64,000 bases of DNA. Source: an uncultured Clostridia bacterium. Its GTDB lineage: Bacteria > Bacillota > Clostridia > Oscillospirales > CAG-382. How positions within the stretch are numbered: position 1 is the stretch's first letter; each line of letters starts with the position of its first letter. This document shows positions 5,958-21,206 of this stretch, piece by piece. Position numbers and translations under genes: made by a program. Under the pieces are notes generated by a model that was not told where the DNA came from, ran no database searches, and was given only the letters and a program-made list of their open reading frames with translations. The DNA lies in assembly GCA_947626805.1 (NCBI GenBank), contig CANQTR010000001.1, positions 11,579-75,578 on the forward strand, given 5' to 3'.

Positions 5958-8900
5958 ATGGCAGAGGATTTGCTGGACAGAAAACTCGAATATTGGGAAC
6001 ATCAATTGCTCGACCTTGGCAAGCGCAACAAAATGATTCATTACCGCGAAACCAAAAGGACTACCCTAAAGTTAGTAGAGCCTTCTTTTGGCAATCTCTT
6101 TACGCGACTGGCGATAAACGAAGAAACGCTGACCTTTCAGCGTGCGGTTGACAGAGAAACGGACATTCGGGTATTTTCCATTTTGTCGCTGCTGGAAACC
6201 TTATCCGCCCCGCTGCCGGTTACAATCGGCGATATCAAAACAGAAGGAAGTATCTTAGAACGTCAGCGCACATTGAAAAATATGCGCGCAAAATCCCGCC
6301 TTGCGCTCGAAGAACAAGGAACGAACATCCTCTACCTTTCTTTTGGATTTATCGAATGGAAAGACGGCAAGGGCGCTTCCGCGCAATGGATTAAATCCCC
6401 CATCATATTGGTGCCGGTCGTATTGACTTTAGAAGCAATCAATTCGCCGTATACGCTATCCAAGCACGAAGACGATATTGTTGTCAACCCCACATTGGAG
6501 TATTATCTCAAAACGGAGTACGGGATTGCATTACCGCATTTTGACGCGGACAAGGATACGCTTGACGAGTATCTGAAAAGCCTTGAAGATATCGCTGACC
6601 GGAGGGGCTGGAAAATTCTACGGGAAGCAAGTTTGGGGCTGCTTTCATTCCTCAAGATTACGATGTATAATGACCTTCTCCGCAATGAGGAGCGCATAAA
6701 GGAAAATCCCGTCATTCGGGCAATGTCCGGCGATACCGATGCGGTGAACGATATCCCCGACGAATTGCATTCATTCGACCTCGATTCAATAAAACCGCAA
6801 GACTGCTATCAAGTGCTGAGCGCCGATTCCAGCCAGCAAGACGCGATTCTTTACGCGAAGAATAACATCAGTTTCGTCATGCAAGGTCCTCCCGGAACCG
6901 GTAAGAGTCAGACGATTACCAACATCATCGCGGAAGCCTTAGCCGATGGAAAAAAAGTATTGTTCGTATCGGAAAAAATGGCTGCTTTGCAGGTGGTATA
7001 TCGAAGGCTGCAGGACGCACACCTTGCCGATTTCTGCCTGCCGCTCCACAGCTATAAGGCAAACAAGAAGGAAATCCTCGAACAAATTGGCGCCAATCTC
7101 AAGTTGAAGCAAACGCGCGTAAAAGATACCGCTATCACCAATCTGGAAGAGCTTTTAGCGATTCGTCAAGAGCTGAATCAATACGCTTCCGAACTCCACG
7201 CATTGAATCCCGAATTGAACCGTAGCTGTTATGAGGTTTACGGCAAACTTGAGGAAGTCAATCATGCGCCTACGGTTACATTCGCCATAGATGACCCCCT
7301 GGGGGTTTCACAGGCTACGTTGCAATCCGATTTGAACGCATTAAACGAATACGCATTGTCCCTGAGCAGATTAAAATATTTCATCAAGAATAATCCGTGG
7401 GAGGGTCTGTCCTCTCGTATATCGAGCTATGCATACTCGGAAAAAATGCGTTTGGAATTAGGCGCGTTTCATGAAATTCTGTCTCGGCTTATCGCGGAAA
7501 TCCAATCCGTTTCGGAATGTTCGCATCTGCCGAGCGCGCTTCCGTATACGGCAATCCCGCTATTGGCAGACGGGTTGCAAAAAATCGGTGCGCTCCCGTC
7601 CGTACCGAATGCGTGGCTTTACGACGTCGACATTTCGCAAGCGATATCCGTAGCCGAGGAGGCAAAAACGCTGTACGAAAAACAGTTTGCGCGGCAAAAG
7701 GAGATTGCGTCCGTCTTTAACAAAGATATCTACGGATATGACTGCAACGGCTGGAAAGAAACGCTCCGGGCAATCGCGAACGCCCTTGCCGACATGCCCT
7801 TGCTTGACAAGGATTCTCCGGACGATTATATCCGAGAGGCGCCGTTACTCGCAAAGGTTTTTTCCGCGCTCAAAGAAAAGCTTGTTACCGTCAATGAAAA
7901 ATTTGCGGCAATCAATGATTTGCTAGGGACGGATTTTCAAGCGAATGTCGCTACGCAACAAGTCGTCGCGGATTTGCTCGCCTTGCTCCAAAGCAACGCA
8001 ATTCCGCAAAAGAATTGGTTTTCCGCCGATTTAAGCGCAATCAAGGGATTGGTCGACGAGGCGAAGACCACGGCAGACGAGCTAAGGACCTGCAAAGAGC
8101 GCATATTGACCGAATGGGAATCGGACGTTTTGGCTTTGGACTATTCGCCGATGCTGTTGCGCTATAAAACGGATTACACACATCTGTCTAGGGTCTTTCA
8201 TTCCCAATACAGGCGGGATAAAAAGCAAATACAGGCATTGTCGAGAACCGTCCGCAAAAAACTGCCCGACGCTGTGGCGTTGGACCTGTTAAACGCATTA
8301 AAGAGATACCACGAAAAGCTGGCGTGGTTCGAGGAAAAGCGTGTTGCGCTATCCACTGCCCTTTCCTCGTATTATATCGGCGTCGATTCGCAATGGGATT
8401 TTATACGGGACGCGGTCGGCGTCGTCGAGCAGCTTTCCCGGCTCCTGGGAGGCCGCATTCCCCCGCGGACGATTGACCTGTTGTGCGCCGACCACCGCGC
8501 GCAAATCGAAACTTTGGAAACTCTGCTGTCAACCGCTAGAACGGCTTTTTCCGCGGCGAAAGAGATTCTGGAAAACCGACAACTCTCCATTCGTATCGAT
8601 TCCCCTGATTTTGATTCGAATCAAACGGTGGCTACAATCGACGCGTACCTGTCAAAACTAAACGAAATTGCCGTGCAGAAAGACCTGCTCAAGCCGTATC
8701 TGTATAACGCGGACGAGCCGATGGACTCCATAAATTCGGCAATGGAAACGCTGCATTTGTACACGGATACGAAGGATTTGCTTTTCGCCCGCTCCGCAAC
8801 GTATCAGCAGCAGTTTGGCTTTTTGTATTCGGATTCCATCACCGATTGGGATTACATTCTCGAACTGCTTGCGAAGGTATCGGAAATCAAACAATTGTCA

Positions 8901-11498
8901 TTATACGAAGAACTACGCCCCGCTATCAACGTGACGGCTGACCGAAAGCAACAGCTGCAGGCGCTTTCCGCGCGGTTGCTGGACGGTTTGAAAGCCGGAC
9001 AAGCCTCGTACGGTTGGATAAAAGACCAGTTCCATGCCGCAACGCATTTCGACGCCTTAAATCTTATCGCCCTTTCCGAAAAAATCGAAGGCTGCTCCGC
9101 TCACATCGACGCCCTCGGCAATTGGATTGACTATCAAGAAGCCAAAGCGACTTGCGACAAAAACGGGCTTTCCGATTTCATCGGCAAAATCGAAGCATCC
9201 GAACTTTATGCGGATATCGACAAAATCTTCTTAAAGGGCTTCTATCAGATGTGGCTCGGCGCCGTATGCGAGAAGTCTGCCTCGGTGCGCCGTTTTCGGA
9301 AAAACGCGCACGAGGAACGCGTCAAAAAGTTCATAGAGCTTGACGATTTGCAACTTTTGATTGCACAAATGCGTATTCGCGAAAAAATGATTGCGAATCT
9401 GCCTTCAACGCACCGATTGCTGAAAGCGACCGATGAAGTTGCAATTCTGAACAAGGAACTGAGCAAAAAACGCAATATCATGCCTTTGCGCAAACTTTTT
9501 CGGATGATTCCCAACCTGCTTATGCGACTGAAACCGTGCCTCATGATGTCCCCGCTCTCCGTGTCCTATTTTTTGGAAACGGAAGCATACCACTTTGATT
9601 TGGTGATTTTCGACGAGGCTTCCCAGATTTTCCCGGAGGACGCCATAGGAGCTATTTTCCGCGGGTCGCAGGTTATCATTGCCGGCGACAGCAAGCAACT
9701 GCCGCCCACCAATTTCTTTTCCGCAACAACAAACAATTCCGACGGGGATTACGATTTGGATGAGGACCAACCGCTTGTCGAAATCGTTTCCGATTCTATT
9801 TTGGAGGAATCGGCGGCGGTATTGCCGAACCGTACCCTGCTGTGGCATTACCGGAGCAAAGACGAAAGCCTTATTGCGTTTTCCAATCGGGAAATTTATA
9901 AAAACAGCCTGATTACCTTTCCAAATCACATTCATAACGCTCCGGACATGGGCGTTGAGTACATCTATGTGGAAAACGGCTATTATGAAGGCGGCGGAAG
10001 GAACTGCAACATACGGGAAGCGGAAAAATGCGTCCTGCTGGTACTGGAACACATCCGACGGCATCCCGACCGTTCCCTTGGCATCATCGCTTTCAGTGAA
10101 AAACAGCAAATCGCCATTGAGAGCGCAATCATCGATTTCAGAGAAAGGATGCCGCAATACGAATGGTTCTTTGATGAATCCAAGGAGGAGCCTTTCTTCG
10201 TCAAAAATCTTGAAAATGTTCAAGGCGACGAACGCGATACCATCCTCTTTAGTATTTGTTACGCCAAAGACCGAAACGGGAAAATGTATATGCGGTTCGG
10301 ACCGCTTGGGCATGAGGGCGGCGAGCGCCGCTTAAATGTAGCCATCACCAGGGCAAAGTGCAATATAAAATTGGTGGGTTCTATCCTCCCTTCCGAAATT
10401 GACCTCAGCAAAACGAATTCCGAAGGCGTTCGTATGCTTCGCGCTTATATCGAATTTGCACGAAACGGCACTAACGCATTCAAGCCGGTAGAAAAAGGCG
10501 AGGCTTTCGAATCGGACGACGAATTCTGCAACATGGTAGCCGCTTTCCTGGAAAGCAACGGATATACGATTCGGAAACGGGTGGGGTGTTCGGATTACAG
10601 AATTGATATCGCAATCGAAAATCCGAAGGCGAACGGAGAATTTATCGCGGGCATCGAATGTGACGGTATGTCCTATATGCACGCGAAAACCGCCCGCGAC
10701 CGAGACCACCTGAGAAGAACCGTGCTTGAGAACATGGGCTGGAATCTGTATCGTGTGTGGTCTACCGAATGGTCTCGCAATCCAAAGGCGGAGAAAGAGG
10801 CGTTGCTCCGATTTGTGCGAACCGCCCTTGAAAAAAACGACGCGGTTCCCTACGCCGTCAAGCAAAGCAATGCGGAGGAGCAGAGCATTGCAATGGAAGA
10901 TATCGCAAGCGAAACAGCAATGCCTCATCCAAAAACGCAAACGCAAAATCCGTATGGGTTTGCATATTACACCGCGGCAAAATGGTGGGAAACGCAATAC
11001 TCCGACGCGCGCGATAATTTGACGCGAATCGGCGATGTCATACTGCATATTGTCCGTACGGAGCAACCCATGCATATGGAGCTCTTATACCGACGAATGG
11101 GTCCGTCATTTACAGCCGGCAAAGCTACCGAAAGCGTCAGAAATGCCGTGGACGAAGCTATCGCAAAGAAATTGAAGGGGCGAGTGGGAATTGACGCCGA
11201 CCGGTTCATTCGGCTGCTTCCTCACGAACCGATTACGGTGCGCATTCCGAAACCCTACGACACACCGCGCCCGATGGAATTGATACATACGGAGGAAGTC
11301 GCCTTGGCAATGATTCAAATCATACGCAACGCGTTCGGTATTACGGAGGAAGATTTGGCGTCCGAATGCGCTCGCGTATTTGGGTTTGATCGAAAAGGGC
11401 CGAAAATCAAAGCCAAAACCGACGCCGCCATTCAATTTTTGGCAGATACCGGAAAAATAAAAATCATCGACGGCAAGGTGCAGTTGACAGGAGAATGA
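5958..11498 (+). CDS. DUF4011-type Upf1-like SF1 helicase fused to a Vsr/DUF559-like PD-(D/E)xK nuclease fold and a DUF3320-like tail (1846 aa)
   Basis: DUF4011-like N-terminus (LEYWEHQLLDLGKRNKMIHY). Walker A GPPGTGKSQT (6885-6914) and Walker B VIFDEASQI (9603-9629). Motifs V/VI VQGDERDTILFS and RRLNVAITRAK. Nuclease-like block YRIDIAIE...GIECDG...RDRDHLRRTVLENMGWNLYRVWSTEW (about 10590-10770). Confidence 0.92.
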   Translation: MAEDLLDRKLEYWEHQLLDLGKRNKMIHYRETKRTTLKLVEPSFGNLFTRLAINEETLTFQRAVDRETDIRVFSILSLLETLSAPLPVTIGDIKTEGSILERQRTLKNMRAKSRLALEEQGTNILYLSFGFIEWKDGKGASAQWIKSPIILVPVVLTLEAINSPYTLSKHEDDIVVNPTLEYYLKTEYGIALPHFDADKDTLDEYLKSLEDIADRRGWKILREASLGLLSFLKITMYNDLLRNEERIKENPVIRAMSGDTDAVNDIPDELHSFDLDSIKPQDCYQVLSADSSQQDAILYAKNNISFVMQGPPGTGKSQTITNIIAEALADGKKVLFVSEKMAALQVVYRRLQDAHLADFCLPLHSYKANKKEILEQIGANLKLKQTRVKDTAITNLEELLAIRQELNQYASELHALNPELNRSCYEVYGKLEEVNHAPTVTFAIDDPLGVSQATLQSDLNALNEYALSLSRLKYFIKNNPWEGLSSRISSYAYSEKMRLELGAFHEILSRLIAEIQSVSECSHLPSALPYTAIPLLADGLQKIGALPSVPNAWLYDVDISQAISVAEEAKTLYEKQFARQKEIASVFNKDIYGYDCNGWKETLRAIANALADMPLLDKDSPDDYIREAPLLAKVFSALKEKLVTVNEKFAAINDLLGTDFQANVATQQVVADLLALLQSNAIPQKNWFSADLSAIKGLVDEAKTTADELRTCKERILTEWESDVLALDYSPMLLRYKTDYTHLSRVFHSQYRRDKKQIQALSRTVRKKLPDAVALDLLNALKRYHEKLAWFEEKRVALSTALSSYYIGVDSQWDFIRDAVGVVEQLSRLLGGRIPPRTIDLLCADHRAQIETLETLLSTARTAFSAAKEILENRQLSIRIDSPDFDSNQTVATIDAYLSKLNEIAVQKDLLKPYLYNADEPMDSINSAMETLHLYTDTKDLLFARSATYQQQFGFLYSDSITDWDYILELLAKVSEIKQLSLYEELRPAINVTADRKQQLQALSARLLDGLKAGQASYGWIKDQFHAATHFDALNLIALSEKIEGCSAHIDALGNWIDYQEAKATCDKNGLSDFIGKIEASELYADIDKIFLKGFYQMWLGAVCEKSASVRRFRKNAHEERVKKFIELDDLQLLIAQMRIREKMIANLPSTHRLLKATDEVAILNKELSKKRNIMPLRKLFRMIPNLLMRLKPCLMMSPLSVSYFLETEAYHFDLVIFDEASQIFPEDAIGAIFRGSQVIIAGDSKQLPPTNFFSATTNNSDGDYDLDEDQPLVEIVSDSILEESAAVLPNRTLLWHYRSKDESLIAFSNREIYKNSLITFPNHIHNAPDMGVEYIYVENGYYEGGGRNCNIREAEKCVLLVLEHIRRHPDRSLGIIAFSEKQQIAIESAIIDFRERMPQYEWFFDESKEEPFFVKNLENVQGDERDTILFSICYAKDRNGKMYMRFGPLGHEGGERRLNVAITRAKCNIKLVGSILPSEIDLSKTNSEGVRMLRAYIEFARNGTNAFKPVEKGEAFESDDEFCNMVAAFLESNGYTIRKRVGCSDYRIDIAIENPKANGEFIAGIECDGMSYMHAKTARDRDHLRRTVLENMGWNLYRVWSTEWSRNPKAEKEALLRFVRTALEKNDAVPYAVKQSNAEEQSIAMEDIASETAMPHPKTQTQNPYGFAYYTAAKWWETQYSDARDNLTRIGDVILHIVRTEQPMHMELLYRRMGPSFTAGKATESVRNAVDEAIAKKLKGRVGIDADRFIRLLPHEPITVRIPKPYDTPRPMELIHTEEVALAMIQIIRNAFGITEEDLASECARVFGFDRKGPKIKAKTDAAIQFLADTGKIKIIDGKVQLTGE

Positions 11499-13183
11499 GG
11501 ATGAGCAATCAAACGGAAATCAACCCCGAAATCAACGCAACCGTGCGCAACGCGGAAGTCGGACAAGCGACAGTCGTCAATCCGGATATTCTAACGGCGC
11601 CGTCCAAAATTCCGGCGGGCACTATACTTGCCGGAAAATACGAAATCGCGGAACCCCTGTGCGCTTCAACCGGAGAAGCCGACCTCTACCGTTGCAAATG
11701 CGACGGCAAGGAATATGTTGCAAAGGTGTATCGGCGGCGACGCGCCGTTAAGCCCGAAGTCATAACGGTTCTGAAATCCATAGATTCGCCGTACGTCGCA
11801 AAACTATTTGACACAGGGGTCTATAACGACCGCCCCTTTGAGGTGCTCCCGTATTACAAAAACGGCAGTTTGCAAGGCAAACGGTTTTCTTTGGCGGAAT
11901 TGAAGGAAACCATAATCCCGTGTATCAACGAAGCGCTTAAGGTCTTACATCAAAACGATATTATCCATAAAGACTTAAAGCCGTCGAATATTATGCTTTT
12001 GGATGACAACAAAACTGTTGCCATCATCGATTTCGGAATCAGTTCGGTTGTAGAAGCCGGGAATACCGTATTGGTCACGAAAACAGGCATGACGCCCGAA
12101 TACTCCGCTCCGGAAACCTTCAGGAATCTGTTTTTGGAGGAATCCGACTACTACTCTTTCGGCATCACCTTGTTTGAATTGTATTGCGGATATACGCCGT
12201 ATGCAAACATGGACGCGGAACAAATCGCACGATTCACCGCCGTTCAGCGGATTCCCTTCCCCGAAAGTATGCCGCAAGAATTGCGGGATTTGATTTCCGC
12301 CGTTACCTATTTCGACATTACCAACCGCAATAAAAAGAGCAATCCCAATAGGCGCTGGACCTATGAAGAGGTATTGGGCTGGTGCAACGGCAAAAAGCAG
12401 GTCATTCCGGGCGAGGGCGTTGGACTTGCGGCGGAAAAGGCTATCCCGCCATACACCTTTTTGGGGAAGGAATACAAAGAGATTCCCGCCCTGATTGCCG
12501 CTCTTGCGGAACATTGGAATGACGGAAAGAAACAGCTTTATCGAGGCTTATTGTCCGGATTTTTCAAAAATTTCAATCCCGAAATCGCAAAATTTTGTTT
12601 GGACGCGGAAGAGGAAGCGACGCGAACGGCGGGCAAAGATGATGTCATCTTTTGGAACCTTCTCTATAGGATTTATCCGGAATTAAGCGGTTTCTATTGG
12701 ATGGGGCAGATTTACGAATCCCTCCCCGCATTGGGACGCGATATGCTCGAACGGCTTTGGAGCAACGATACATCCAACCATTCTTATTGGGACAGCATCC
12801 TGACGAACAAGTTGCTTACGCGTTATCTTGCAATCGTCAAATCCCAAAATGACGCGCTGGTGTCCGCGTCCTCGGCGCTGGAAACGGCGCATACGGTCGT
12901 CGGCAGAAGCAACCGCGATACCATGATGAACTACTATACAATGGCATATTTGCTTTCCGGGCAGAAACTCTTTGCGATTGGCAAAAAACGATTGCAGAAC
13001 GTATCGGAGCTGACCGCGCATATGAAAGGACTGCTTGCTTCTTCTTATGAGGAATTTGAGGACTTTTGCCATGAATTGATTGATTATGATGATACGCTGG
13101 ACGTCCAGTTTGAAGCGTGGTTGATAGCGCTCGGCAAAAGAACGGAATTGGACGCTTGGCGGCAGGGGTTGCAGGACACCTGA
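11495..13183 (+). CDS. Hanks-type Ser/Thr protein kinase with unassigned 260-aa C-terminal domain
   Basis: ATP-anchoring Lys in YVAKVY, catalytic loop HKDLKPSNIML (from 11966), DFG (IIDFGIS), APE (YSAPE). The ATG overlaps the helicase stop (ATGA); a second in-frame ATG is at 11501. Confidence 0.9.
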   Translation: MRMSNQTEINPEINATVRNAEVGQATVVNPDILTAPSKIPAGTILAGKYEIAEPLCASTGEADLYRCKCDGKEYVAKVYRRRRAVKPEVITVLKSIDSPYVAKLFDTGVYNDRPFEVLPYYKNGSLQGKRFSLAELKETIIPCINEALKVLHQNDIIHKDLKPSNIMLLDDNKTVAIIDFGISSVVEAGNTVLVTKTGMTPEYSAPETFRNLFLEESDYYSFGITLFELYCGYTPYANMDAEQIARFTAVQRIPFPESMPQELRDLISAVTYFDITNRNKKSNPNRRWTYEEVLGWCNGKKQVIPGEGVGLAAEKAIPPYTFLGKEYKEIPALIAALAEHWNDGKKQLYRGLLSGFFKNFNPEIAKFCLDAEEEATRTAGKDDVIFWNLLYRIYPELSGFYWMGQIYESLPALGRDMLERLWSNDTSNHSYWDSILTNKLLTRYLAIVKSQNDALVSASSALETAHTVVGRSNRDTMMNYYTMAYLLSGQKLFAIGKKRLQNVSELTAHMKGLLASSYEEFEDFCHELIDYDDTLDVQFEAWLIALGKRTELDAWRQGLQDT

Positions 13184-13198
13184 GCGGTCGTCGCATAG

Positions 13199-13217
13199 AA
13201 AAGGGGCACCCTTTTTT
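13199..13217 (+). terminator. weak hairpin plus T-run (possible attenuator or partial terminator inside the operon)
   Basis: AAAAGGG-GCA-CCCTTTTTT, 16 nt after the kinase stop. The stem is only 7 bp, so the call is weak. Confidence 0.35.
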
Positions 13218-13312
13218 GACGGCAAAGATTCGACACGAACGAATCTGCCATTACGCATATCAAAAAGGAACGGTTCTGCCGATTCCAGGATTTTCGGAGA
13301 GGAGGACGCCGA

Positions 13313-14605
13313 ATGAGCGGACCCAAAACATCAAAATATACGTTAACGCCGGAGCAACGGCGGATTTTGGCGGAGCAAAGAAAACTTGCGCACAGAAAAT
13401 CCATAGCTTCCGAAACCATCCAAAGGAATCGCAAAAGATTGCTGCAAATCGGCAGTATATTTTCTGCCGCAAAGACCGTTTCGGACGCGCTCGTGAGCCG
13501 TACCGGTTCCGATAACGGCTTTGCGGAGCGGATGCCGGAATTGGAGGGTATCCTTGCGTCCGTCGCCTCCGTCGTCGCGGGCGTAAATGCCGAGGACGTC
13601 GTTTCCCTCGAAAATGCGTCAAAAACGATTTCGGAAAGTCTCGCAAAAGCCGAAAAGATTGCTTCGGAATTGTCCCAAATTTCCGCCCGCAACGAAGTGG
13701 AACTGCAAGCCGTACTGCATGCCGATATCGATAAAGGATTCGACACTTCTTTTGCCGATATTGCCCCCGCGGCAGCGCCTACCGTAACGGAAAGACGAAA
13801 AACGCTCCTCGCGCAACTCATTCGGATGAAAAATAACAAAACCCTGCCCGCCGAATGGATAACCGAACTCGAAAAAGCAATCGGCAAAATAAACGATATC
13901 CGGGATGAAACGTTTTTGAAAAATTTTTCTTCCGTAACGGTCGCTCCGTTGCTCAAACGTTGCCAAATCTTCTTGGATGAATGCGAAGCCTGCCACGAAG
14001 AATTCGAAAAATTATATGCGGAATATATTGCCCTCTGCAATCTTTACTGCTATGTCGCGCAAGAGTATCCCTGTTGCGCCGCCTCTATCGAGGCTCTCAA
14101 AGCGGAAATCCGGCGTATAAGCGCCGTTGCGGCTGAAAATGACGAGCAAGCGTATATCAGCGAATGTTTGGACGAGGTCATGGAAGAAATGGGCTATACC
14201 GTGATTGGCAGTCGCGAAGTCACCAAAAAGAACGGAAAGCATTTTCGCAATGAACTTTATACCTATGGGGATGGGACCGCGGTCAATGTGACGTATTCTT
14301 CCGACGGGAGAATCGCAATGGAGCTTGGCGGAATCGATTCCGTCGACAGACTGCCGGAGGCGCGCGAAACAGCCGCTTTGTGCGCGTCCATGGAACAGTT
14401 TTGCGATGATTTCAAGGAAATCGAAAAGCGACTGCTCGCCAAAGGCGTCGTGCTTGCCCACCGGGTTTCTCTGCTGCCTCCGAGCGCGGAATACGCCCAA
14501 ATTATCAACACAACGGAGTATCGAATGACCGAAGAAACGGATACGTCGCAAGCGAAGAAAAAACGTAGGACCGCAAAAAATCGAAAAGCGATGGGGATAG
14601 AGTAA
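13313..14605 (+). CDS. hypothetical protein (430 aa), helical N-half, Cys-containing alpha/beta C-half
   Basis: GGAGAGGAGGA SD. No catalytic motif recognised. N-terminus MSGPKTSKYTLTPEQRR carries Thr-Pro/Ser sites. The stop lies 3 nt before the FHA gene. Confidence 0.8.
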   Translation: MSGPKTSKYTLTPEQRRILAEQRKLAHRKSIASETIQRNRKRLLQIGSIFSAAKTVSDALVSRTGSDNGFAERMPELEGILASVASVVAGVNAEDVVSLENASKTISESLAKAEKIASELSQISARNEVELQAVLHADIDKGFDTSFADIAPAAAPTVTERRKTLLAQLIRMKNNKTLPAEWITELEKAIGKINDIRDETFLKNFSSVTVAPLLKRCQIFLDECEACHEEFEKLYAEYIALCNLYCYVAQEYPCCAASIEALKAEIRRISAVAAENDEQAYISECLDEVMEEMGYTVIGSREVTKKNGKHFRNELYTYGDGTAVNVTYSSDGRIAMELGGIDSVDRLPEARETAALCASMEQFCDDFKEIEKRLLAKGVVLAHRVSLLPPSAEYAQIINTTEYRMTEETDTSQAKKKRRTAKNRKAMGIE

Positions 14606-14608
14606 CCA

Positions 14609-15223
14609 ATGGAAAAGTATAAACTTTGCCCTTCCTGCAAGAAAAAGAATCCGCCGACTTTATTTGAGTGCATAAACTGTGAAACCGACCTTACCGGCGT
14701 TAAAATTACCGATGAAGAGGCGGAAAAAATGCTTGCGGAAACCGCCGTTTCGCAAGCGGAATCGCCTAAGAACATGGTTAGGGTTTGCGAATGCGGCGCA
14801 AAGAACGCCCCCAATGCGCGAAAATGCCGTTCGTGTAACGAGGACATCTCGGACATTCCCCCGACCGTCGATACGGAAGAAGGAACCGAAACCACGACCT
14901 TTGTGTTAAGCAGTCTTGACGGTCGGTACGCTTTCAAGGTCACGACAGACGAGGTAACGCTCGGACGAGAGAGCGCAATGCGCGAATACCTCTCGGCAAA
15001 AAGCTATGTGAGCAGATTGCACGCAAGCGTTACAAAGGTGCACGACGAATGGTTTATCGAAAATTTGAGCAATACCAATTTCACCTATGTCAATAATAAA
15101 AGAATCACAGAGAAAACCAAACTGCAAGACGGAGATGAAATCGGACTCGGGGGAACATCGCTTAACGGCAAGCGCCAGGAACAGGCGGCATATTTCTTGG
15201 TGAGGATTGGAAAATGTATGTAG
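14609..15223 (+). CDS. double zinc-ribbon + FHA domain protein
   Basis: CPSCKK...CINCETD and CECGAK...CRSCNED ribbons, then the FHA core VTLGRES...SRLHASV...IENLSNTNFTYVNNKRI...DGDEIGLG. Confidence 0.85.
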   Translation: MEKYKLCPSCKKKNPPTLFECINCETDLTGVKITDEEAEKMLAETAVSQAESPKNMVRVCECGAKNAPNARKCRSCNEDISDIPPTVDTEEGTETTTFVLSSLDGRYAFKVTTDEVTLGRESAMREYLSAKSYVSRLHASVTKVHDEWFIENLSNTNFTYVNNKRITEKTKLQDGDEIGLGGTSLNGKRQEQAAYFLVRIGKCM

Positions 15224-15762
15224 CGAGAATTCTGTATCCCGTCGAGGTTCTCGGACCCGGAAAGCGTGTGGGTATTTGGTTTTGCGGTTGTCCCCGCAGG
15301 TGCAAGGGATGCAGCAATCCCGAGCTTTGGGAATTTAACGAGCGCTACAAAACGACCCCCGAAACGGTTTTTGCATTGATAAAAAGGCTTGCCGAAGAAC
15401 ACCCGATAGACGGCTTTACAATCACCGGCGGCGAACCGATGTTTCAGACGGCGGATTTACGGAAATTGCTTGGATTATTAAAAGAAATCTCGGATGATAT
15501 ACTTGTTTATACGGGATACAAGAAGAGCGACCTTGACCCTGCATTGCTTGCCGACGTGAGCGTCCTGATTGACGGAGAATATCTGGAAGAACGGAATGAC
15601 GATTCGCTGCTCAGAGGTTCTTCCAATCAGGAAGTGCATCTATTAGACGCGAAAAAGGCGGATACCTATAGGACCTACTTTGCGACGGAAACCAACAAGA
15701 TTCAAAACTTCTTCACCTCGGACGGCGTTGTTTCCGTCGGAATACACAGACCGAACTTTTGA
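15214..15762 (+). CDS. NrdG-like radical-SAM activating enzyme (182 aa), orphan
   Basis: VLGPGKRVGIWFCGCPRRCKGCSNPELW contains CxxxCxxC (C26/C30/C33, nt 15289-15312). Also TGGEPMFQ, ILVYTGY and a VLIDGEY...LLRGSSNQ tail, as in class III RNR activases. Overlaps the FHA gene by 10 nt. Confidence 0.85.
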   Translation: MYVARILYPVEVLGPGKRVGIWFCGCPRRCKGCSNPELWEFNERYKTTPETVFALIKRLAEEHPIDGFTITGGEPMFQTADLRKLLGLLKEISDDILVYTGYKKSDLDPALLADVSVLIDGEYLEERNDDSLLRGSSNQEVHLLDAKKADTYRTYFATETNKIQNFFTSDGVVSVGIHRPNF

Positions 15763-15775
15763 GAGGAGAAAGGAA

Positions 15776-17656
15776 ATGGCCGATTACATCCCGAAATGGC
15801 ATAAAGAGCTTGGCATTTTCTCGAAAATCAAGCCGCTGATTATTTTGGAAGGGAATGTTTTGGACTCGTATCAGTATCCCGTAGAAGGAAGCACCCCGAA
15901 GGGCAGCATTTTGCGCTTGCCCGAATATCTGCACTTTTACTTCAAGGACATGGGATACCAAACCATCGTTTTCTATGATAGCCTGAGAGGTTTCTATAAC
16001 ACTTGCGAGGAAGGCTATCTTGAACGTTTCGCAAAACTCGCCGAAAGTTCCGCAAGCCACGGTTTTATCAAAGCCGATTTCAAAGGCGGCAATAAGAATG
16101 ACGGCGCGGTCAACATTGTTCGTAAAACCCTTTCGCAAAACCGGGAGGCAACCGTTATTGTCATGGATTTTGCGTCTAGGTATATTCCTTCTCCCGACAA
16201 CTTAGACCAAAACGAGGTCGACAGCTTTACCGTACTCCTGCAGGCGTCCCTCGACGCGAAAGATGTAAAGACGGAAAGCAACGGGATTCTGAAAAACCTT
16301 CTCCTATTGATTGCGAATAAAGCAAACGACATCCCCGCCTGGTTCTATTTGCAAAATCCCAATGTAAAGATGATTACGCTTTCCGCTCCGTCCAAAGAAG
16401 AGCGGGAAGCGTTGGTGAAAAGTCAAAACTTCCCCAGTTTCTTTGCGGGCGAAGTCTATGCGGAAGATAGCGTTTATTATGACGCGCACCCGGACGAACT
16501 TACGAAAATCCAGGATAAATTCGTTGCGCTTACCGAAGGGTTCAGCTTTACCGAAATCAACGGCTTGCGAAGACTCTGCAAAAACGAAAGAATCCGTATG
16601 CGGGATTTCTGTGATGTAATTGACTTATATAAGTACGGGATTCGGGAAAATCCATGGAAAAGCCTTGATTTTGAGAAGATTCGAAATGCCAAAGCGGACT
16701 TTGAAAATCGGGTGAAAGGGCAGGACCAAGCGATAACGAAAACGCTTGACGTTGTCAAACGCGCAATCACCGGAATGTCCGGGCTGCAAGGTTCGTCCCA
16801 TACAAGACCAAAAGGGGTTTTATTCTTTGCCGGACCTACGGGCACCGGGAAAACCGAAACGGCCAAAACGCTCGCGGAAATTCTCTTCGGCGATGAAAGC
16901 TGCTGCAAAAGATTTGATATGAGTGAGTATGGGCAAAGCCACAGTGACCAAAAATTGCTCGGAGCGCCTCCCGGATATGTGGGGTATGAGGCCGGTGGAC
17001 AGCTGACCAATGCCGTCAAAAACAACCCGTTCTCGATTTTGCTGTTTGACGAAATCGAAAAAGCGCACCCGTCTATTTTGGACAAGTTCCTGCAAATTCT
17101 CGAGGACGGTCGAATGACCGACGGGCAAGGAAATACCGTCTACTTTTCCGAAACAATCATCATATTCACAAGCAATCTCGGAATTTACACGATGAACGAA
17201 AACGGACAGCGGGAAGCAAACGTCACAAGCGATATGCCATATCGGGAAATATCCGCGCGCGTTCGAGAAGCCATTGAAGCGTATTTCAAATTGCAGCTCG
17301 GTCGCCCCGAAATCCTCAACAGAATCGGAGAGAATATCGTGGTGTTCGACTATATTCGCCCCGAAGTAGCAAAACAGATTCTCAATGCGCAAGTGCAGAA
17401 AATCCTTGCGAATCTGTCTGCCGAAAAACGGATTACGTTAACCATTGCAGACGACGCTATGGCAACTTTAACGGAACACGCTTTAAACAATCTCCAAAAC
17501 GGCGGGCGCGGAATCGGAAATGTCGTCGAGAACCTCTTAATTAATCCGTTGTCGCGATACCTATTTGACAGGGAGATATTCGGTACCGCAAGCATAACGA
17601 TTAATCGCATTGATACCACTGCAACGCCGCCGTCATTGAACTGCACGAAGGGTTGA
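15776..17656 (+). CDS. ClpA/ClpB-D2-like AAA+ ATPase with degenerate N-terminal half
   Basis: ORF 15680.. trimmed to ATG 15776 (GAGAGGAGAAAGG SD). Walker A GPTGTGKT (16832-16855), GAPPGYVGY, Walker B ILLFDEIEKAHP, sensor-1 IIIFTSN, ILNRIGE, and a ClpB D2-small-like tail. The first 330 aa or so have no P-loop. Confidence 0.9.
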   Translation: MADYIPKWHKELGIFSKIKPLIILEGNVLDSYQYPVEGSTPKGSILRLPEYLHFYFKDMGYQTIVFYDSLRGFYNTCEEGYLERFAKLAESSASHGFIKADFKGGNKNDGAVNIVRKTLSQNREATVIVMDFASRYIPSPDNLDQNEVDSFTVLLQASLDAKDVKTESNGILKNLLLLIANKANDIPAWFYLQNPNVKMITLSAPSKEEREALVKSQNFPSFFAGEVYAEDSVYYDAHPDELTKIQDKFVALTEGFSFTEINGLRRLCKNERIRMRDFCDVIDLYKYGIRENPWKSLDFEKIRNAKADFENRVKGQDQAITKTLDVVKRAITGMSGLQGSSHTRPKGVLFFAGPTGTGKTETAKTLAEILFGDESCCKRFDMSEYGQSHSDQKLLGAPPGYVGYEAGGQLTNAVKNNPFSILLFDEIEKAHPSILDKFLQILEDGRMTDGQGNTVYFSETIIIFTSNLGIYTMNENGQREANVTSDMPYREISARVREAIEAYFKLQLGRPEILNRIGENIVVFDYIRPEVAKQILNAQVQKILANLSAEKRITLTIADDAMATLTEHALNNLQNGGRGIGNVVENLLINPLSRYLFDREIFGTASITINRIDTTATPPSLNCTKG

Positions 17657-17659
17657 GGT

Positions 17660-18382
17660 ATGAAGGTCATCGCCATAACGCAAAAAGGTCCAAACAAGTC
17701 GGAAAATGAAGATAGAATCGTCGTCGGGAAATCCGTCCTTGCAGACGGGACCCTCTGTTCCGAAATCAAGGAAGGCGTTATAGCGATTGCGGACGGCGTC
17801 GGCGGGCAAAACGCGGGCGCGTATGCGTCGCAATACGTCGCGGGCAGGCTTTGCACGATAAACGAAATATCCGACAAACGCATGCGGGATATAAACGAAG
17901 AACTGATACGAATTTCCGAGACCCGTGAAAACCTAAACGGAATGGCTACGACTTTATCCGGGGTGCGTATTTCCGAAAGCAAGACGCAATTGTTCGGTAT
18001 CGGTAACACCCGTGTATATCTTCTTCAAAGCGGAAAATACCTCAAACAGCTCACATCCGACGATACGACTTTGCAGTATTTGCTTGCCGCCGGCCAATTA
18101 GCGCCGGGCGACGCGGCGAGGTTTGACAGGAAAAACGAACTCGTCGCTTGTTTCGGAGGCAACTCTCCCGAGCTGTTCAAAATCAAGATACGCGATATGG
18201 AACCGTTTGCCGCGCCGATTGTCCTCAGTTCCGACGGCATACACGACTATTTGACCGTTGACCAAATGGAAGATATTATCGCGTCGTTCGGGCTCTCCGA
18301 AGCCGCGTGTAAGGAACTGATTCGGCTTGCGCGGGAAAACGGTTCATCCGACGACGCGAGTATCGTTTTCGGCGTGGTTTAG
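17660..18382 (+). CDS. PP2C-family Ser/Thr protein phosphatase
   Basis: NEDRIVV, IADGVGGQNAG, GMATTLSG, GNTRVYLL, LSSDGIHDYL, GSSDDASIV (PPM motifs). The start lies 3 nt after the ATPase stop. Confidence 0.9.
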   Translation: MKVIAITQKGPNKSENEDRIVVGKSVLADGTLCSEIKEGVIAIADGVGGQNAGAYASQYVAGRLCTINEISDKRMRDINEELIRISETRENLNGMATTLSGVRISESKTQLFGIGNTRVYLLQSGKYLKQLTSDDTTLQYLLAAGQLAPGDAARFDRKNELVACFGGNSPELFKIKIRDMEPFAAPIVLSSDGIHDYLTVDQMEDIIASFGLSEAACKELIRLARENGSSDDASIVFGVV

Positions 18383-18529
18383 GCCAGACTTCGGTTTTGG
18401 AAACGCGTGCCAATCCTCCGCGGCGCAATGCGCAACTTTTAAAAAACGGGCCTCCCCTTCCGTACGGGTCCGTCCGCATGCGTTTGACGCTTTTCACCCC
18501 GCAAAATACCCTTTCGGAGCCGAAACGGA

Positions 18530-20809
18530 ATGAACGAATTGAAAGAACAAGCCCTTGCAATACTCGGAAAGTTGCTTTATCGGCAGGAACACCCGAAATT
18601 CCGGGAGAATCAAATGCGAATTATCCGTTCCCTGCTCAACGGGAAAAACACGCTTGCGATTCTGCCGACGGGCAGCGGAAAATCCGTGTGCTATCAGGTC
18701 CCCGCGTTTATGCTGCCGGGCGTGACCGTCGTGATTTCGCCGCTGATAAGCCTTATCGAGGACCAGGTAGACGCGCTGCTCGAAAATCCGAACGAGGAAA
18801 TCCGCAAAAAGGTCGCCTGCATTTCCTCCGATTTCATCGCCGACAAGGACGGGAAACACCTTTCCGAGAAAAACCGCAAAACGGGGAAAGCGGAAAAAAA
18901 CCGTTCCCGCCTTTGGAAAGAAGTCCTGCTCGACGCGTCGAAAGGCGCATACAAACTCCTTTACATCACCGCCGAACGGCTCCGACGCGCGGATTTTGTC
19001 CGCTTTATGAGCAACGCGGAAATCGGGCTGTTCGTCGTCGACGAGGCGCACTGTGTCTCGATGTACGGATACGAATTTCGGCCGCGGTACCTCGAAATCG
19101 GCAGAATTTTTGCGAAATCCGGAAAGCGCCCGCCCGTCGCCGCTTTCACCGCAACCGCCACAAAAGCGGTGACCGAGGATATCCTGACCTATCTCGATAT
19201 GAAAAAGCCGAAAATCATAACCGCAGATACGAAAGCGAGAAGGAATCTCCATTACAGCGTTCTGCGCGTTCCCGAATCGGCCGACACGGAAACGAAAGTT
19301 TTCAACCAAAAAATGAAGGCGTTGACGCGCTTTTTGTCCGCTCATCCCGACGAAAGCGGTTTCGTTTACTGTACGACCGTGAAAACCGTCAACAAGGTGT
19401 TCAAATCCCTTTCCAAAGCGGGGTATTCCGTGACGCGGTATTACGCATCCCTCGCGCAATCCCCCGAAACGGAGGAAAGCAAGGACGACAACTTCAGGAA
19501 ATTCCTTGACGGCGAAAAAAAGATTATCGTGTCGACCACGGCGCTCGGAATGGGCATAAACAAAACCGACGTGCGGTTCGTCGTGCACTTCAACCTGCCC
19601 CTCTGCATGGAAAACTACGCGCAGGAATCGGGGCGCGCGGGACGCGACGGAAAAGACGCTTACTGTATGCTCCTCTATCATCCGTCCGATAAGAATACTT
19701 GCGAAAAACTTGTGAACCAAACCGTATTTTCAAGCAACCTTTCGGAGGGCGACAAAGCGAAGCGGAAACGAATCTCCGATTTGCGGCTGGAACGGATGCG
19801 GCACTTTGCCGAAACCGGCGAAAACAAGTCGAGCGACGAACTGCAAGCCGAAATGCTCGCGTATTTCGACAATTTCGACCCGCGCGACGGCGCGCTCGAC
19901 CTCGACCGCAAGAAACTCGACGTCTACAAAACCGTCCGCAAAATCGACGTTCTTTACTGCAACCGCACCGATGTGGCGTGGCATATCCGACGGGGGATTT
20001 GCAGCGCGGAAAACCTGAACGTATCGTCCTCTTCCCATTACACGGTTTCCTTTCGCGTCACGGACGAGAACGGAAAAACGGATGCGGGAATGCTTTCGTA
20101 TTTCGATATGATGATTGCCGACGCCGTCTACACGCTGCAATTTCACCGCAAAAAAAGGGTGACGGCAAGAGCCGTCATGGGGATTTTGGCGGGCGACGCG
20201 TCGCTTACGCTCCGTCCCGACCGAAAAGAGCGCGTAGAGCAGAGCATCCTGAAAATGCTCCGCATGCACATCGAAATCGACCGACGCAACTCCGTTTCCG
20301 TCGGGTATGCCTACGAAAACGAAAACAAAGCCGCCGTACTCTCCGGCAAATTTCTGCCGCTTGCGGCGAACGCGAAGGGCGGTTTCGATTTTATCGACGG
20401 CGCGCCTTTTCCGCTTTACGAGTACGCGGAACTCACAAACGGGCAGTTTTACACGTTTCCGTTCAAGGCGCTCAAAAACATCGCGCGTCCCGCGAGCGAC
20501 AGCAACCTTGCACTCCTGCACTATCTTTTGTGCAGAATCGATATGATGAGTTCGCCGCAAAAAAAGCGACGGACAACCAATCGGATACGGATGGATACGG
20601 TTTTCGAAGTTCTCGGCGTATCGCTTCCGGAGGACCCCTACGAAAGGGCGCGAAAAGAGGAAACCGTTTCGCAAAAAATCGCCGGGATGCTCGACGGACT
20701 CAAGGCGATTGACCGCATTGCGACATGGACGGTCGAACGCGAAAACGGCGTGCGGATTTTTACGATTAAGAAGTGGATTTACGATGCTCCCGACGTCATA
20801 TCTCTATAA
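18530..20809 (+). CDS. RecQ-family DEAH helicase with atypical C-terminal 330 aa
   Basis: LPTGSGKSVCYQVPA, VVDEAHCVSMYGYEFRPRY, TATAT, GMGINKTDVRFVVHFNLP, YAQESGRAGRDG. I see no Cys4 zinc module or HRDC-like motif after motif VI. Confidence 0.88.
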   Translation: MNELKEQALAILGKLLYRQEHPKFRENQMRIIRSLLNGKNTLAILPTGSGKSVCYQVPAFMLPGVTVVISPLISLIEDQVDALLENPNEEIRKKVACISSDFIADKDGKHLSEKNRKTGKAEKNRSRLWKEVLLDASKGAYKLLYITAERLRRADFVRFMSNAEIGLFVVDEAHCVSMYGYEFRPRYLEIGRIFAKSGKRPPVAAFTATATKAVTEDILTYLDMKKPKIITADTKARRNLHYSVLRVPESADTETKVFNQKMKALTRFLSAHPDESGFVYCTTVKTVNKVFKSLSKAGYSVTRYYASLAQSPETEESKDDNFRKFLDGEKKIIVSTTALGMGINKTDVRFVVHFNLPLCMENYAQESGRAGRDGKDAYCMLLYHPSDKNTCEKLVNQTVFSSNLSEGDKAKRKRISDLRLERMRHFAETGENKSSDELQAEMLAYFDNFDPRDGALDLDRKKLDVYKTVRKIDVLYCNRTDVAWHIRRGICSAENLNVSSSSHYTVSFRVTDENGKTDAGMLSYFDMMIADAVYTLQFHRKKRVTARAVMGILAGDASLTLRPDRKERVEQSILKMLRMHIEIDRRNSVSVGYAYENENKAAVLSGKFLPLAANAKGGFDFIDGAPFPLYEYAELTNGQFYTFPFKALKNIARPASDSNLALLHYLLCRIDMMSSPQKKRRTTNRIRMDTVFEVLGVSLPEDPYERARKEETVSQKIAGMLDGLKAIDRIATWTVERENGVRIFTIKKWIYDAPDVISL

Positions 20810-20966
20810 AAACATAAGAGTTTTTGCGGTTTCGGCAGGTCATTTTTCTTGCAAATACGCTGTTTTTTCGGTGATGCGAACGCATATATGTTTATCTGTT
20901 TCGCCTCACATGCCTACGAAAAGAAACCGAATCCTGTGAGGCACCCATGCGAAGCATGGGAAGTAC

Positions 20967-20997
20967 AGTCCGAAGAAATCTTCGGACTATTTTTTTA
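20967..20997 (+). terminator. rho-independent terminator
   Basis: AGTCCGAAG-AAAT-CTTCGGACT followed by ATTTTTTT. It is preceded by two more hairpins at 20903-20942 and 20944-20960. Confidence 0.7.
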
Positions 20998-21206
20998 TGG
21001 AACCGCCGCAATTCCCTTGCAATCGTATGATACGCGGCGGCGCGCCCGCTCGGCGGGCGTTTTTTCTTTGTTTCCGCGTTTTCGTTTATTGCTTTGCGTT
21101 GGGCGCTTTTCTTTCGTTCGGTGCAACACGATGCCTTCGGCATCCGGGTATTCCTTTGAAGGTTTCAAATTACTGTAAAATCAATATCTAAAAAAGGAGA
21201 ACACTT

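Follow-up and report, generated by a model that had tools for sequence, protein, structure and literature searches.

Several described systems share parts with the locus examined here. The threonine-phosphorylation pathway of the Pseudomonas H1-T6SS unites a kinase (PpkA), a PP2C phosphatase (PppA), an FHA protein (Fha1/TagH) and a Clp/Hsp100-type AAA+ protein (ClpV1). The TerY-P triad reportedly consists of the vWA protein TerY, a PP2C phosphatase and a Ser/Thr kinase (STK), and DolB of the Dodola system is a ClpB-like ATPase used in defense. The KKP module is a kinase-based anti-phage defense (PMC11341870). ProA, or Prometheus, has been reported as an experimentally validated single-protein defense (PMC13700489). 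Esr, a threat-sensing pathway of Actinomycetota, comprises a MoxR AAA+ protein, a vWA protein, a kinase/phosphatase pair, and an FHA output protein whose phosphothreonine state is set by that pair (bioRxiv 10.64898/2026.09.08.750141).

The DNA analyzed in the current study is a stretch of 64,000 nucleotides, hereafter called the window. An earlier reading based only on the letters of this stretch (the sequence-only reading) had claimed that a kinase, an FHA protein, an AAA+ protein, and a PP2C phosphatase are co-encoded in it, and indeed all four open reading frames and their domains are present. However, these genes are only part of a six- to seven-gene cassette, all on the + strand. The four-part picture is incomplete because it omits two obligatory partners, a 430-aa protein (U430) and an NrdG-like radical-SAM enzyme (rSAM), as well as a helicase-nuclease that is the likely output. 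Neither a named family nor a publication that covers the cassette could be found, and it matches no described system. Judging from its neighbors and distribution, it is probably a new, phospho-gated defense system, because it combines a phosphorylation switch, an unusual unfoldase, an rSAM enzyme, U430, and a helicase-nuclease related to anti-phage proteins. More specifically, we lean toward the view that it is a horizontally acquired, three-layer conflict system, most probably directed against phages or other mobile DNA.

The genes are tightly packed in the window. The helicase-nuclease and kinase genes overlap by 4 nt at the stop codon of the former and the start codon of the latter (ATGA), the FHA and rSAM genes overlap by 10 nt, and gaps of 3 nt separate U430 from the FHA gene and the AAA+ gene from that for PP2C. 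On sequence grounds, the kinase, FHA, PP2C, and AAA+ genes are a conserved, translationally coupled unit without a T6SS. The absence of T6SS genes, also claimed by the sequence-only reading, extends to the whole 1.97-Mb assembly (81% complete), in which TssC/VipB (PF05943) has no match while an E. coli control was positive. Likewise, no Clp ATPase in the assembly reaches the ClpV1 cut-off. Downstream lies a RecQ/DpdF-like gene that we regard as an unrelated neighbor; a RecQ-like gene is found in only 1 of 80 loci.

The 80 related loci come from Bacillota, save for a MAG that bears the label Muribaculum and two records whose titles say only 'bacterium'. We infer a Gram-positive context for the window from this near-uniformity and from the ClpB of the genome, which is closest to one from Subdoligranulum. 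The order STK-U430-FHA-rSAM-AAA-PP2C is identical in 51 of the 62 complete loci from other Bacillota, and it persists down to 30% identity of U430. Because the six genes share this order, their co-occurrence is not due to chance. It might be supposed that the Prometheus-like gene, the kinase with its phosphatase, and the Clp paralogue are independent, functionally unlinked modules that happen to lie side by side, given that defense islands pack unrelated systems together and that the RecQ/DpdF-like gene is such a neighbor. However, the gene order is kept over wide divergence, the genes overlap, the AAA+ protein has a dedicated clade, and the kinase and helicase-nuclease are fused in Proteobacteria. 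The synteny and fusion data therefore contradict chance adjacency, which we consider extremely improbable.

The Hanks-type kinase (562 aa; 11495..13183; Pkinase E 1e-31) has its kinase domain at approximately residues 40-290. The Lys, HxD, DFG, activation-loop Thr, and APE residues are conserved among 70 homologues, as is an NPNRRWT motif that follows the kinase domain. The C-terminal region of ~270 aa matches no family and may be a sensor. No vWA domain was matched with Pfam, and the PADLOC hits to mad6 (127 bits) and PD-T4-6 (96 bits) cover the generic kinase domain alone. The FHA protein (204 aa; 14609..15223) carries two zinc ribbons (DZR/RanBP) followed by the FHA domain (E 6e-14), and its GR, SxxH, and N motifs and eight Cys residues are conserved in 70 homologues. 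It is presumed to be a phosphothreonine reader or adaptor. We rejected its assignment as TagH/Fha1 (TIGR03354; 28 bits versus a cut-off of 120), and its best NCBIfam match is FhaB/FipA (52 bits). The PP2C phosphatase (240 aa; 17660..18382), an Stp1/IreP-type match that falls below the cut-off (E 2e-35), retains DGVGG, GNxR, SDG, and DD motifs in 51 homologues and presumably serves as the reset arm of the switch. It is the least conserved member and the only cassette gene to go undetected in otherwise complete loci (7 of 62). Both the FHA and PP2C proteins are dispensable in distant versions of the cassette. The catalytic or binding motifs of the kinase, FHA, AAA+, and PP2C proteins are conserved across 50-70 homologous loci, and by analogy with the H1-T6SS a post-translational phosphothreonine switch is plausible.

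U430 (13313..14605) has no Pfam, NCBIfam, or PADLOC match, and its relatives include 685 representative homologues. Its N-terminus is near-invariant, MSGPK(T/S)SxYTLT, with G3 unchanged in 40 homologues; the chain continues as a long coiled-coil stalk and has an alpha/beta head, also conserved, at its C-terminus. The AF2 model (pLDDT 87.7) gave only weak AdoMetDC-fold matches when folds were compared. Homologues that begin with MSGPK are present in Rhizobium and Caballeronia, and others that begin with MSGSPK in Geminocystis. The hydroxyl at position 12 is conserved, but the residue is Ser in some homologues and is therefore a poor fit to FHA binding.

The AAA+ protein (626 aa; 15776..17656; AAA_2 E 2e-49) is a Clp/Hsp100-type unfoldase of unusual build. 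Its D1 ring (residues 1-290) is degenerate, and ILEGNVLD takes the place of Walker A. The D2 ring is like that of ClpB, with Walker A and B motifs, a GYVG pore loop, and a D2-small domain, and a comparison of 32 homologues shows no change in GPTGTGKT, DEIEKA, or PPGYVGYEAGG. We predict from these motifs that D1 is dead and that D2 is active. No N-domain, M-domain (AF2 model), or ClpP-docking loop is present. Although residues 1-320 have no sequence match in the PDB, where the best match of the protein is NBD2 of T. thermophilus ClpB (216 bits), the AF2 model aligns over ~650 columns with the two-ring proteins ClpC, ClpA, and ClpB, and thus D1 is structurally present. Scores against the ClpB family (266 bits; cut-off 1232) are low. 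A candidate identity as ClpV was rejected, as the match to TssH/ClpV (TIGR03345) reaches 223 bits over the D2 region only (cut-off 885) and TssH forms a separate clade. In a tree of D2 sequences, 15 cassette proteins from four lineages (Bacillota, Alpha- and Gammaproteobacteria, and Cyanobacteriota) group together (100/100) in a clade that excludes ClpA, ClpB, ClpC, ClpL, and TssH. The sequence-only reading would have been contradicted by an AAA+ protein that groups with unrelated housekeeping chaperones in an unconserved neighborhood, but the protein does not cluster with housekeeping chaperones and its neighborhood is conserved (51 of 62 loci). The earlier proposal of a four-part switch like that of the T6SS stands with regard to the co-encoded domain families, but the AAA+ and FHA proteins are not of T6SS type. 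Skd3 resembles the cassette AAA+ protein in having only one active ring; unlike ClpB, ClpC, and Skd3, however, the latter keeps D1 as a pseudo-ATPase and forms its own clade. DolB is matched weakly (80 bits, AAA core only), and DolA (DUF6414) is not matched.

The rSAM enzyme (182 aa; 15214..15762; Fer4_12 E 3e-29) is of the glycyl-radical-activase type. It shares with the NrdG and PflA activases the small Fer4_12 fold, C26x3C30x2C33, GGEP, and DGxY, which are conserved together with RGSSNQ. The cluster motif CX3CX2C is invariant, yet the score against NrdG (TIGR02491) is 98 bits, below the cut-off of 126, and a bona fide NrdG (186 bits) is encoded separately on another contig. Unlike for NrdG, there is no NrdD or other glycyl-radical enzyme nearby: no NrdD/PFL-like partner was detected among window genes (Pfam), in loci L001-L004 (precomputed families), or in the accessory and flanking ORFs scanned elsewhere.

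Upstream of the kinase gene is the gene for a giant, Prometheus/Hhe-like SF1 helicase-nuclease (1846 aa; 5958..11498). The ProA/Hhe architecture is present in one protein, with DUF4011, AAA_11/AAA_12, and an MTES_1575 REase domain (Pfam); DUF3320 yielded only a faint precomputed match in an 88%-identical homologue. With PADLOC, the protein reaches 1371 bits against PDC-S37 and 578 bits against Hhe. Its NCBIfam score for ProA is 1285 bits, short of the cut-off of 1500, and that for Hhe is 855 bits, short of 2000. A ProA-like helicase-nuclease adjoins the kinase in 40 of 57 loci. Furthermore, on plasmids of Rhizobium and Caballeronia the kinase and a DUF4011/SF1/MTES_1575 protein make up a single fused polypeptide, and this fusion adjoins the AAA+, rSAM, and MSGPK proteins of the cassette. 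A version lacking the kinase, on plasmids of Acinetobacter and Photobacterium, combines an SF1 helicase, a PIN protein, and a coiled-coil protein with AAA+ and rSAM. The helicase-nuclease is likely the effector or output in most loci. Because 17 of 57 loci lack it, it is not a universal output.

Those 17 loci, and the fact that nothing but the AAA+/rSAM pair is common to all versions in the four bacterial lineages, also favor another reading, in which U430, AAA+, and rSAM themselves act as the effector, with the helicase-nuclease as an optional addition. Perhaps the unfoldase, once phospho-activated, pulls a protein of phage or host origin through its pore, whereupon rSAM places a radical on the threaded protein, on G3 of U430, or on G72 of the pseudo-D1 to create a protein-directed radical weapon or switch. 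The GYVG pore loop is intact, G3 is invariant and so is G72 across the four lineages sampled, and rSAM, a paralogue distinct from the housekeeping NrdG, keeps all NrdG-type motifs. However, the canonical glycyl-radical motif (RVxG[FWY]) is absent from every cassette protein, and a glycyl radical is O2-sensitive, whereas the cassette exists in aerobes such as Rhizobium and Acinetobacter. Moreover, a helicase plus a nuclease is carried by every non-Bacillota version seen except that of Geminocystis. On balance, we consider it rather unlikely that the trio is the effector.

The distribution of the cassette is patchy and includes plasmids. It was found in 1 of 101 related genomes (37 genera) and is absent from the other 100, it sits in a low-GC island (48-50% versus 53-60% in flanking windows), and it is carried by a plasmid of Aristaeella lactis. 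Accessory genes, which encode membrane, LRR_5, and DUF4236 proteins, differ between loci. Flanking ORFs elsewhere match LmuA, DRT, Avs1a, DrmA/D, BrxH, and DpdF models, an apparent enrichment of defense genes. Some observations run counter to a role in defense. With PADLOC, the kinase and AAA+ proteins match only generic kinase and AAA-core models and U430, FHA, rSAM, and PP2C match none, such that the six kinase-to-PP2C genes fit no defense model specifically; in addition, no pseudo-D1 was found in phage records. Conceivably, the cassette is instead a non-immune DNA/RNA maintenance or stress module on mobile DNA (e.g., for R-loops or stalled replication), wherein kinase, FHA, and PP2C proteins tie the helicase-nuclease and chaperone to physiology, as in the FhaA/FhaB-PstP-PknB operon of Actinobacteria. 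The best matches of the FHA protein (FhaB/FipA) and PP2C (Stp1/IreP) are in line with such a role, and the relatives of Prometheus are reported to be akin to enzymes that act on R-loops (PMC13700489). The AAA+ protein is also 62-89% identical across Bacillota, which is commoner in housekeeping machines than in fast-evolving immune genes. However, the rarity of the cassette among related genomes, its low-GC and plasmid settings, its variable accessory genes and defense-gene neighbors, and family scores that all fall under housekeeping-protein cut-offs make a maintenance function unlikely in our judgment.

For the three-layer conflict system that we favor, it is reasonable to speculate on how the parts might collaborate. 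The deep core, kept across phyla, would be the MSGPK/coiled-coil protein, the Clp/Hsp100 unfoldase, and the NrdG-like rSAM. In the second layer, the Hanks kinase would write, the zinc-ribbon-FHA protein read, and PP2C erase a phosphothreonine mark, and the Prometheus/Hhe-type helicase-nuclease would provide the third layer, or output, in most loci. PP2C might hold the system off until an infection cue switches on the kinase, which could then phosphorylate itself or the Thr-rich N-terminus of U430. The FHA protein might dock on the phosphothreonine and bring the complex to the AAA+ motor, which with rSAM could remodel or modify a protein partner. Perhaps this step then permits the helicase-nuclease to act, or membrane proteins in other loci.

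The proposed system has only partial counterparts among those already described. With Prometheus, Hhe, and PDC-S37, the cassette shares the DUF4011, SF1 helicase, and MTES_1575 nuclease architecture of its upstream gene. However, Prometheus has been described as acting through one protein (PMC13700489), whereas the cassette helicase-nuclease is translationally coupled to six more genes and is kinase-fused in Proteobacteria. TerY-P, KKP, PD-T4-6, and MAD6 of MADS use a Ser/Thr kinase, with or without PP2C, as a signaling element, as we propose for the cassette; but the cassette has no vWA/TerY protein or second kinase, and those systems lack the AAA+/rSAM pair.

Esr is like the cassette in being Gram-positive, in lacking a T6SS, and in including an AAA+ protein in its module, and some of its FHA variants carry zinc fingers (bioRxiv 10.64898/2026.09.08.750141). 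The Esr AAA+ protein, however, is a MoxR, accompanied by a vWA partner and by beta-propeller sensors. The cassette contains none of these, and no cassette protein matches vWA or MoxR in Pfam, NCBIfam, or PADLOC. The output of Esr is transcription and Esx secretion, and it has no rSAM, Hsp100, or helicase-nuclease. The H1-T6SS pathway shares with the cassette a kinase, PP2C, FHA, and Clp/Hsp100 AAA+ protein in one locus. Unlike in that pathway, the cassette AAA+ protein has no ClpV N-domain and its D1 is predicted to be dead, and the kinase, unlike PpkA, has no vWA match. Beyond the H1-T6SS pathway, the cassette adds the rSAM enzyme, the MSGPK protein, and the helicase-nuclease.

Seven tightly packed genes, all in the same orientation, occupy positions 5958-18382 (+). 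The first encodes an SF1 helicase-nuclease of 1846 amino acids (5958-11498, +) with DUF4011, AAA_11/12, and MTES_1575 domains. This protein scores 1371 bits against the PADLOC model PDC-S37, and the NCBIfam models for the Prometheus protein ProA and for Hhe give 1285 (cut-off 1500) and 855 (cut-off 2000), respectively. The six genes that follow, hereafter the cassette, begin with a Hanks kinase of 562 residues (11495-13183, +; Pkinase, E = 1e-31) whose C-terminal half has no assigned family, and a 430-residue protein termed U430 (13313-14605, +) without a match in Pfam, NCBIfam, or PADLOC. Next are a 204-residue protein with two zinc ribbons and an FHA domain (14609-15223, +; FHA, E = 6e-14) and a 182-residue NrdG-like radical-SAM enzyme (15214-15762, +; 98 bits, under the 126-bit cut-off). 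The last two are a 626-residue AAA+ protein whose C-terminal half carries AAA_2 and ClpB_D2-small domains (15776-17656, +; AAA_2, E = 2e-49) and a 240-residue Stp1-type PP2C phosphatase (17660-18382, +; E = 2e-35). Overlaps join the helicase-nuclease gene to the kinase gene (4 nt) and the FHA gene to the radical-SAM gene (10 nt); two other gene pairs are separated by 3 nt. The sequence-only reading had singled out the kinase, FHA, AAA+, and PP2C genes. Pfam, PADLOC, and NCBIfam scans place all four at the positions claimed, but they are only four of the seven genes in the block.

Among 50-70 homologues, the kinase retains its catalytic Lys, HxD, DFG, activation-loop threonines, and APE, and the PP2C protein retains its metal-binding aspartates. 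Likewise, GR, SxxH, N, and eight zinc-ribbon cysteines are conserved in the FHA protein, as are C26x3C30x2C33, GGEP, DGxY, and RGSSNQ in the radical-SAM enzyme. A true NrdG (186 bits) is encoded on a different contig of the genome, and the radical-SAM enzyme of the cassette is an additional paralogue.

U430 defines a large, unnamed family of 685 representative clusters at E ≤ 1e-3, of which 285 remain at E ≤ 1e-30. Forty diverse members (alignment A1) were built into a profile, and a search of species genomes with it yielded 80 loci, in which ORFs were called and then scored against the proteins of the window. All but three of these loci are from Bacillota, the exceptions being a Muribaculum-labelled MAG and two records titled only 'bacterium'; across the genome collection, the cassette occurs in about 100 Bacillota species. 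The order kinase-U430-FHA-radical-SAM-AAA+-PP2C is preserved in 51 of the 62 loci with room for the full set; PP2C alone went undetected in seven more, and four are degraded. This order persists at U430 identities as low as 30%. Thus, the gene neighborhood, whose conservation mattered to the sequence-only reading, is indeed conserved. In 40 of the 57 loci with sufficient upstream sequence, a ProA-like helicase-nuclease gene immediately precedes the kinase; in the remaining 17, the upstream genes are unrelated. One locus (L026) carries a second kinase gene and ProA-like gene on the opposite strand (6794-12507, -), downstream of a truncated cassette, which suggests two inverted copies or a rearrangement.

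The ends of the block were judged by comparison among loci. A promoter and terminator scan of 4400-21300 cannot delimit the operon because its counts equal those in shuffled sequence. Strong plus-strand terminators in this region lie only 3′ of a RecQ-like gene (20967 and 21042). In C. thermosuccinogenes, the seven genes are followed by a GH32 gene, and therefore the block ends with PP2C and the RecQ/DpdF-like gene of the window is only a neighbor. This gene (18530-20809, +) encodes a RecQ-family helicase of 759 amino acids with PADLOC matches to DpdF (352 bits) and PsyrT (267 bits), and starts 147 nt past the PP2C gene with no strong terminator in the gap. It was rejected as a member, and because a RecQ-like gene accompanies the cassette in just one of the 80 loci, it may be a separate defense gene in the same island. 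Also left out was the gene for a 189-residue membrane protein (5258-5827), which has no homologue across the 80 related loci. Farther downstream, overlapping genes at 21207-23855 (+) encode a ClpP paralogue (200 aa), a 249-residue protein of no recognized type, and a VirD4/TraG-type coupling-protein ATPase (436 aa). None of the three has a PADLOC match, and CLP_protease is not among the commonest Pfam families of cassette-flanking ORFs in the other loci.

The AAA+ protein is unusually conserved, with 62-89% identity between loci whose U430 proteins share 30-70%. Its residues 289-601 match NBD2 of Thermus thermophilus ClpB (216 bits in a search of PDB sequences), and this second ring has intact Walker A, Walker B, and GYVG pore-loop motifs. 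Residues 1-320 have no sequence match in the PDB. An AF2 model (pLDDT 78.9) made from an alignment of 32 homologues can be superposed on two-ring ClpC, ClpA, and ClpB chains across about 650 aligned columns (E ~1e-23), and therefore the N-terminal half is a degenerate D1 ring (pseudo-D1), with ILEGNVLD at the expected Walker A site. The protein lacks an N-domain, an M-domain, and a ClpP loop. Its D2 domain and those of its homologues were compared in a maximum-likelihood tree with those of ClpA (E. coli), ClpB (Legionella), ClpC (C. difficile), ClpL, three TssH proteins, and two Clp paralogues from the window's own genome. All 15 cassette AAA+ proteins form a single clade (100/100) on a long stem, and TssH proteins form a separate clade (100/100) on the opposite side of the tree. 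The phylogenetic placement called for by the sequence-only reading thus has an answer: the cassette AAA+ is neither ClpV nor a housekeeping chaperone. A search of phage records with pseudo-D1 gave no match. Elsewhere in the same genome, an unusual open frame of about 1000-1200 residues (contig C48, 3506-4288, -) carries a Clp D2-like module that scores 116 bits against the ClpV1 model and 102 bits against the cassette D2.

In the U430 alignment, M1-S2-G3 is invariant, P4, K5, Y9, L11, and Q15 are nearly invariant, and the C-terminal domain is conserved. In an AF2 model (pLDDT 87.7), a short N-terminal strand is combined with long helices spanning about 280 residues and with an alpha/beta head. 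Foldseek found nothing in the PDB at E ≤ 0.001 with this model, and its weak matches are to AdoMetDC-fold domains only (3c6k, E = 0.027; 1tlu and 1vr7, E ~1), a likeness that is at most a hint.

Versions outside Bacillota were recovered by tblastn of plasmids with the pseudo-D1 query, which gave full-length matches at 19-25% identity in Rhizobium (seven records), Caballeronia, Geminocystis, Photobacterium, and Acinetobacter. The order in Rhizobium and Caballeronia is AAA+, radical-SAM, a 2086-2112-residue protein in which a protein kinase domain is fused to DUF4011, AAA_11/12, and MTES_1575, and then a protein of about 450 residues starting MSGPKVV. The Rhizobium MSGPK protein aligns weakly with U430 (hhalign probability 20%) and has the MSGPK start, size, and position in common with it. 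In Geminocystis, the U430 head is matched (hhalign probability 96%) by a 427-residue protein that starts MSGSPKY and is encoded just upstream of AAA+. On this Geminocystis plasmid (pGM01), HigB toxin and transcriptional-regulator genes lie between the U430-like and AAA+ genes (8181-8886), and the radical-SAM gene is about 9 kb upstream, past five hypothetical genes. Acinetobacter and Photobacterium carry an SF1 helicase, a PIN protein, a coiled-coil protein, AAA+, and the radical-SAM enzyme; kinase, FHA, and PP2C were neither annotated nor detected by a scan of these loci. The gammaproteobacterial coiled-coil protein is not a proven homologue of U430, because hhalign of the 371-residue Acinetobacter protein against the U430 profile was not significant. 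The kinase-less variant on Acinetobacter sp. WCHA55 plasmid pNDM1_010055 (1731-13703) is directly followed by genes encoding another small AAA ATPase, another radical-SAM protein, and a hypothetical product.

Thus, the AAA+/radical-SAM pair is the constant part, accompanied by a coiled-coil partner and a helicase plus nuclease, and the phospho-switch is a layer that is present, fused, or absent depending on the version. The main rival explanation, that the U430/AAA+/radical-SAM trio is the effector itself, is one we consider rather unlikely. Joint action of the kinase and the helicase-nuclease with the AAA+/radical-SAM pair is best supported by the kinase/helicase-nuclease fusion of Rhizobium and Caballeronia.

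Several features point to a role in conflict. The window's genome is alone among 101 relatives (37 genera) in carrying a U430 gene. GC content at about 4000-18000 is 48-50%, compared with mostly 53-60% in flanking windows, as would be expected if the cassette and the small membrane-protein gene (5258-5827) were acquired horizontally. The cassette also resides on an Aristaeella lactis plasmid, where RefSeq names are generic only. Accessory genes differ from locus to locus. Many loci encode membrane proteins from at least four unrelated families, with N-terminal TM helices, coiled coils, and no Pfam match, inserted in the kinase/U430 or AAA+/PP2C gap (e.g., L007:9340-9993, L012:8780-9973, L025:2107-3342, and L059:14370-15143), and these are candidate alternative effectors. 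A BspA-type LRR_5 protein of 330-370 residues, which may be a variable sensor, forms a 15-member family absent from the window (e.g., L005:12479-13588; also in L018, L022, L024, L027, L033, and L035). Its genes lie mostly between radical-SAM and AAA+, with two between kinase and U430. A DUF4236 protein of about 310-350 residues accounts for 24 of 88 ORFs sampled just 3′ of PP2C, usually directly next to it (e.g., L005:16192-17130, L007:15078-16040, and L017:15323-16339); the window has none, and on the A. lactis plasmid one is found upstream, encoded on the opposite strand. Flanking ORFs in other loci match Lamassu, DRT, Avs, DISARM, BREX-helicase, and DpdF models. Moreover, Prometheus ProA is reported to be an experimentally validated single-protein defense (PMC13700489). 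Rarity among relatives, low GC content, a plasmid copy, variable accessories, defense flanks, and ProA validation together suggest a conflict system.

From the established properties of these families, we somewhat favor a phospho-switched AAA+/radical-SAM cascade that unleashes a helicase-nuclease or a membrane protein. The kinase would respond to an infection cue, possibly via its C-terminal domain, and the FHA protein would read phosphothreonine formed either in the kinase activation loop or in the Thr-rich N-terminal region of U430. The AAA+ protein might then thread or remodel a partner, and a protein or small molecule would be the target of the radical-SAM enzyme. This would unleash the helicase-nuclease, or the membrane protein at some loci, and PP2C would reset the system.

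A bolder proposal, which we regard as unlikely, is a new prokaryotic immune machine in which an Hsp100 with a pseudo-ATPase ring and a glycyl-radical-activase-like radical-SAM enzyme act on a protein, under phosphothreonine license, to engage a Prometheus-type helicase-nuclease. This protein might be the coiled-coil partner, acted on at its invariant MSGPK N-terminus, or might come from a phage. Neither the U430 nor the AAA+ alignment shows a canonical glycyl-radical motif by eye, and it is speculation that G72 of 'RGFY' in pseudo-D1, invariant across phyla, and G3 of U430 are radical-related glycines. If true, radical protein chemistry, AAA+ unfolding, and Hanks-kinase signaling would be linked for the first time in defense. 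If the favored reading holds, Hsp100 unfoldases would gain a new job, in which one with a pseudo-ATPase ring works alongside a radical-SAM 'activase' lacking a known substrate. The validated single-protein family Prometheus/Hhe would also have a regulated form under a kinase/FHA/PP2C switch, a link supported by the kinase fusion in Proteobacteria. The cassette is also a defined candidate set for finding a new radical-SAM reaction on protein.

How this system compares with known ones can now be stated. The sequence-only reading likened the four genes to the H1-T6SS threonine-phosphorylation pathway while noting that T6SS genes were absent. The absence is upheld: the assembly (1.97 Mb, 168 contigs, 81% complete) has no TssC/VipB match, with a positive E. 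coli control, and none of the genome's three ordinary two-ring Clp ATPases reaches the ClpV1 cut-off. The likeness survives in that the four domain types co-occur with similar logic, but all family-level tests of it failed. We found no model specific to the six genes in NCBIfam (June 2026) or PADLOC (2023), and no description of this gene set in the literature; it would, if our reading is true, be a widespread multi-gene system without a described counterpart, with related versions on proteobacterial and cyanobacterial plasmids. TerY-P is a kinase-based defense and a closer functional analogue than T6SS, but lacks the Hsp100/radical-SAM pair. The kinase-based defenses KKP (PMC11341870) and PD-T4-6 are likewise closer analogues and also lack this pair. 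The same is true of the Esr pathway of Actinomycetota, which comprises MoxR, vWA, kinase, phosphatase, and FHA components (bioRxiv 10.64898/2026.09.08.750141). Beside Esr, the cassette would be a second case outside T6SS in which phosphothreonine gates a conflict response.
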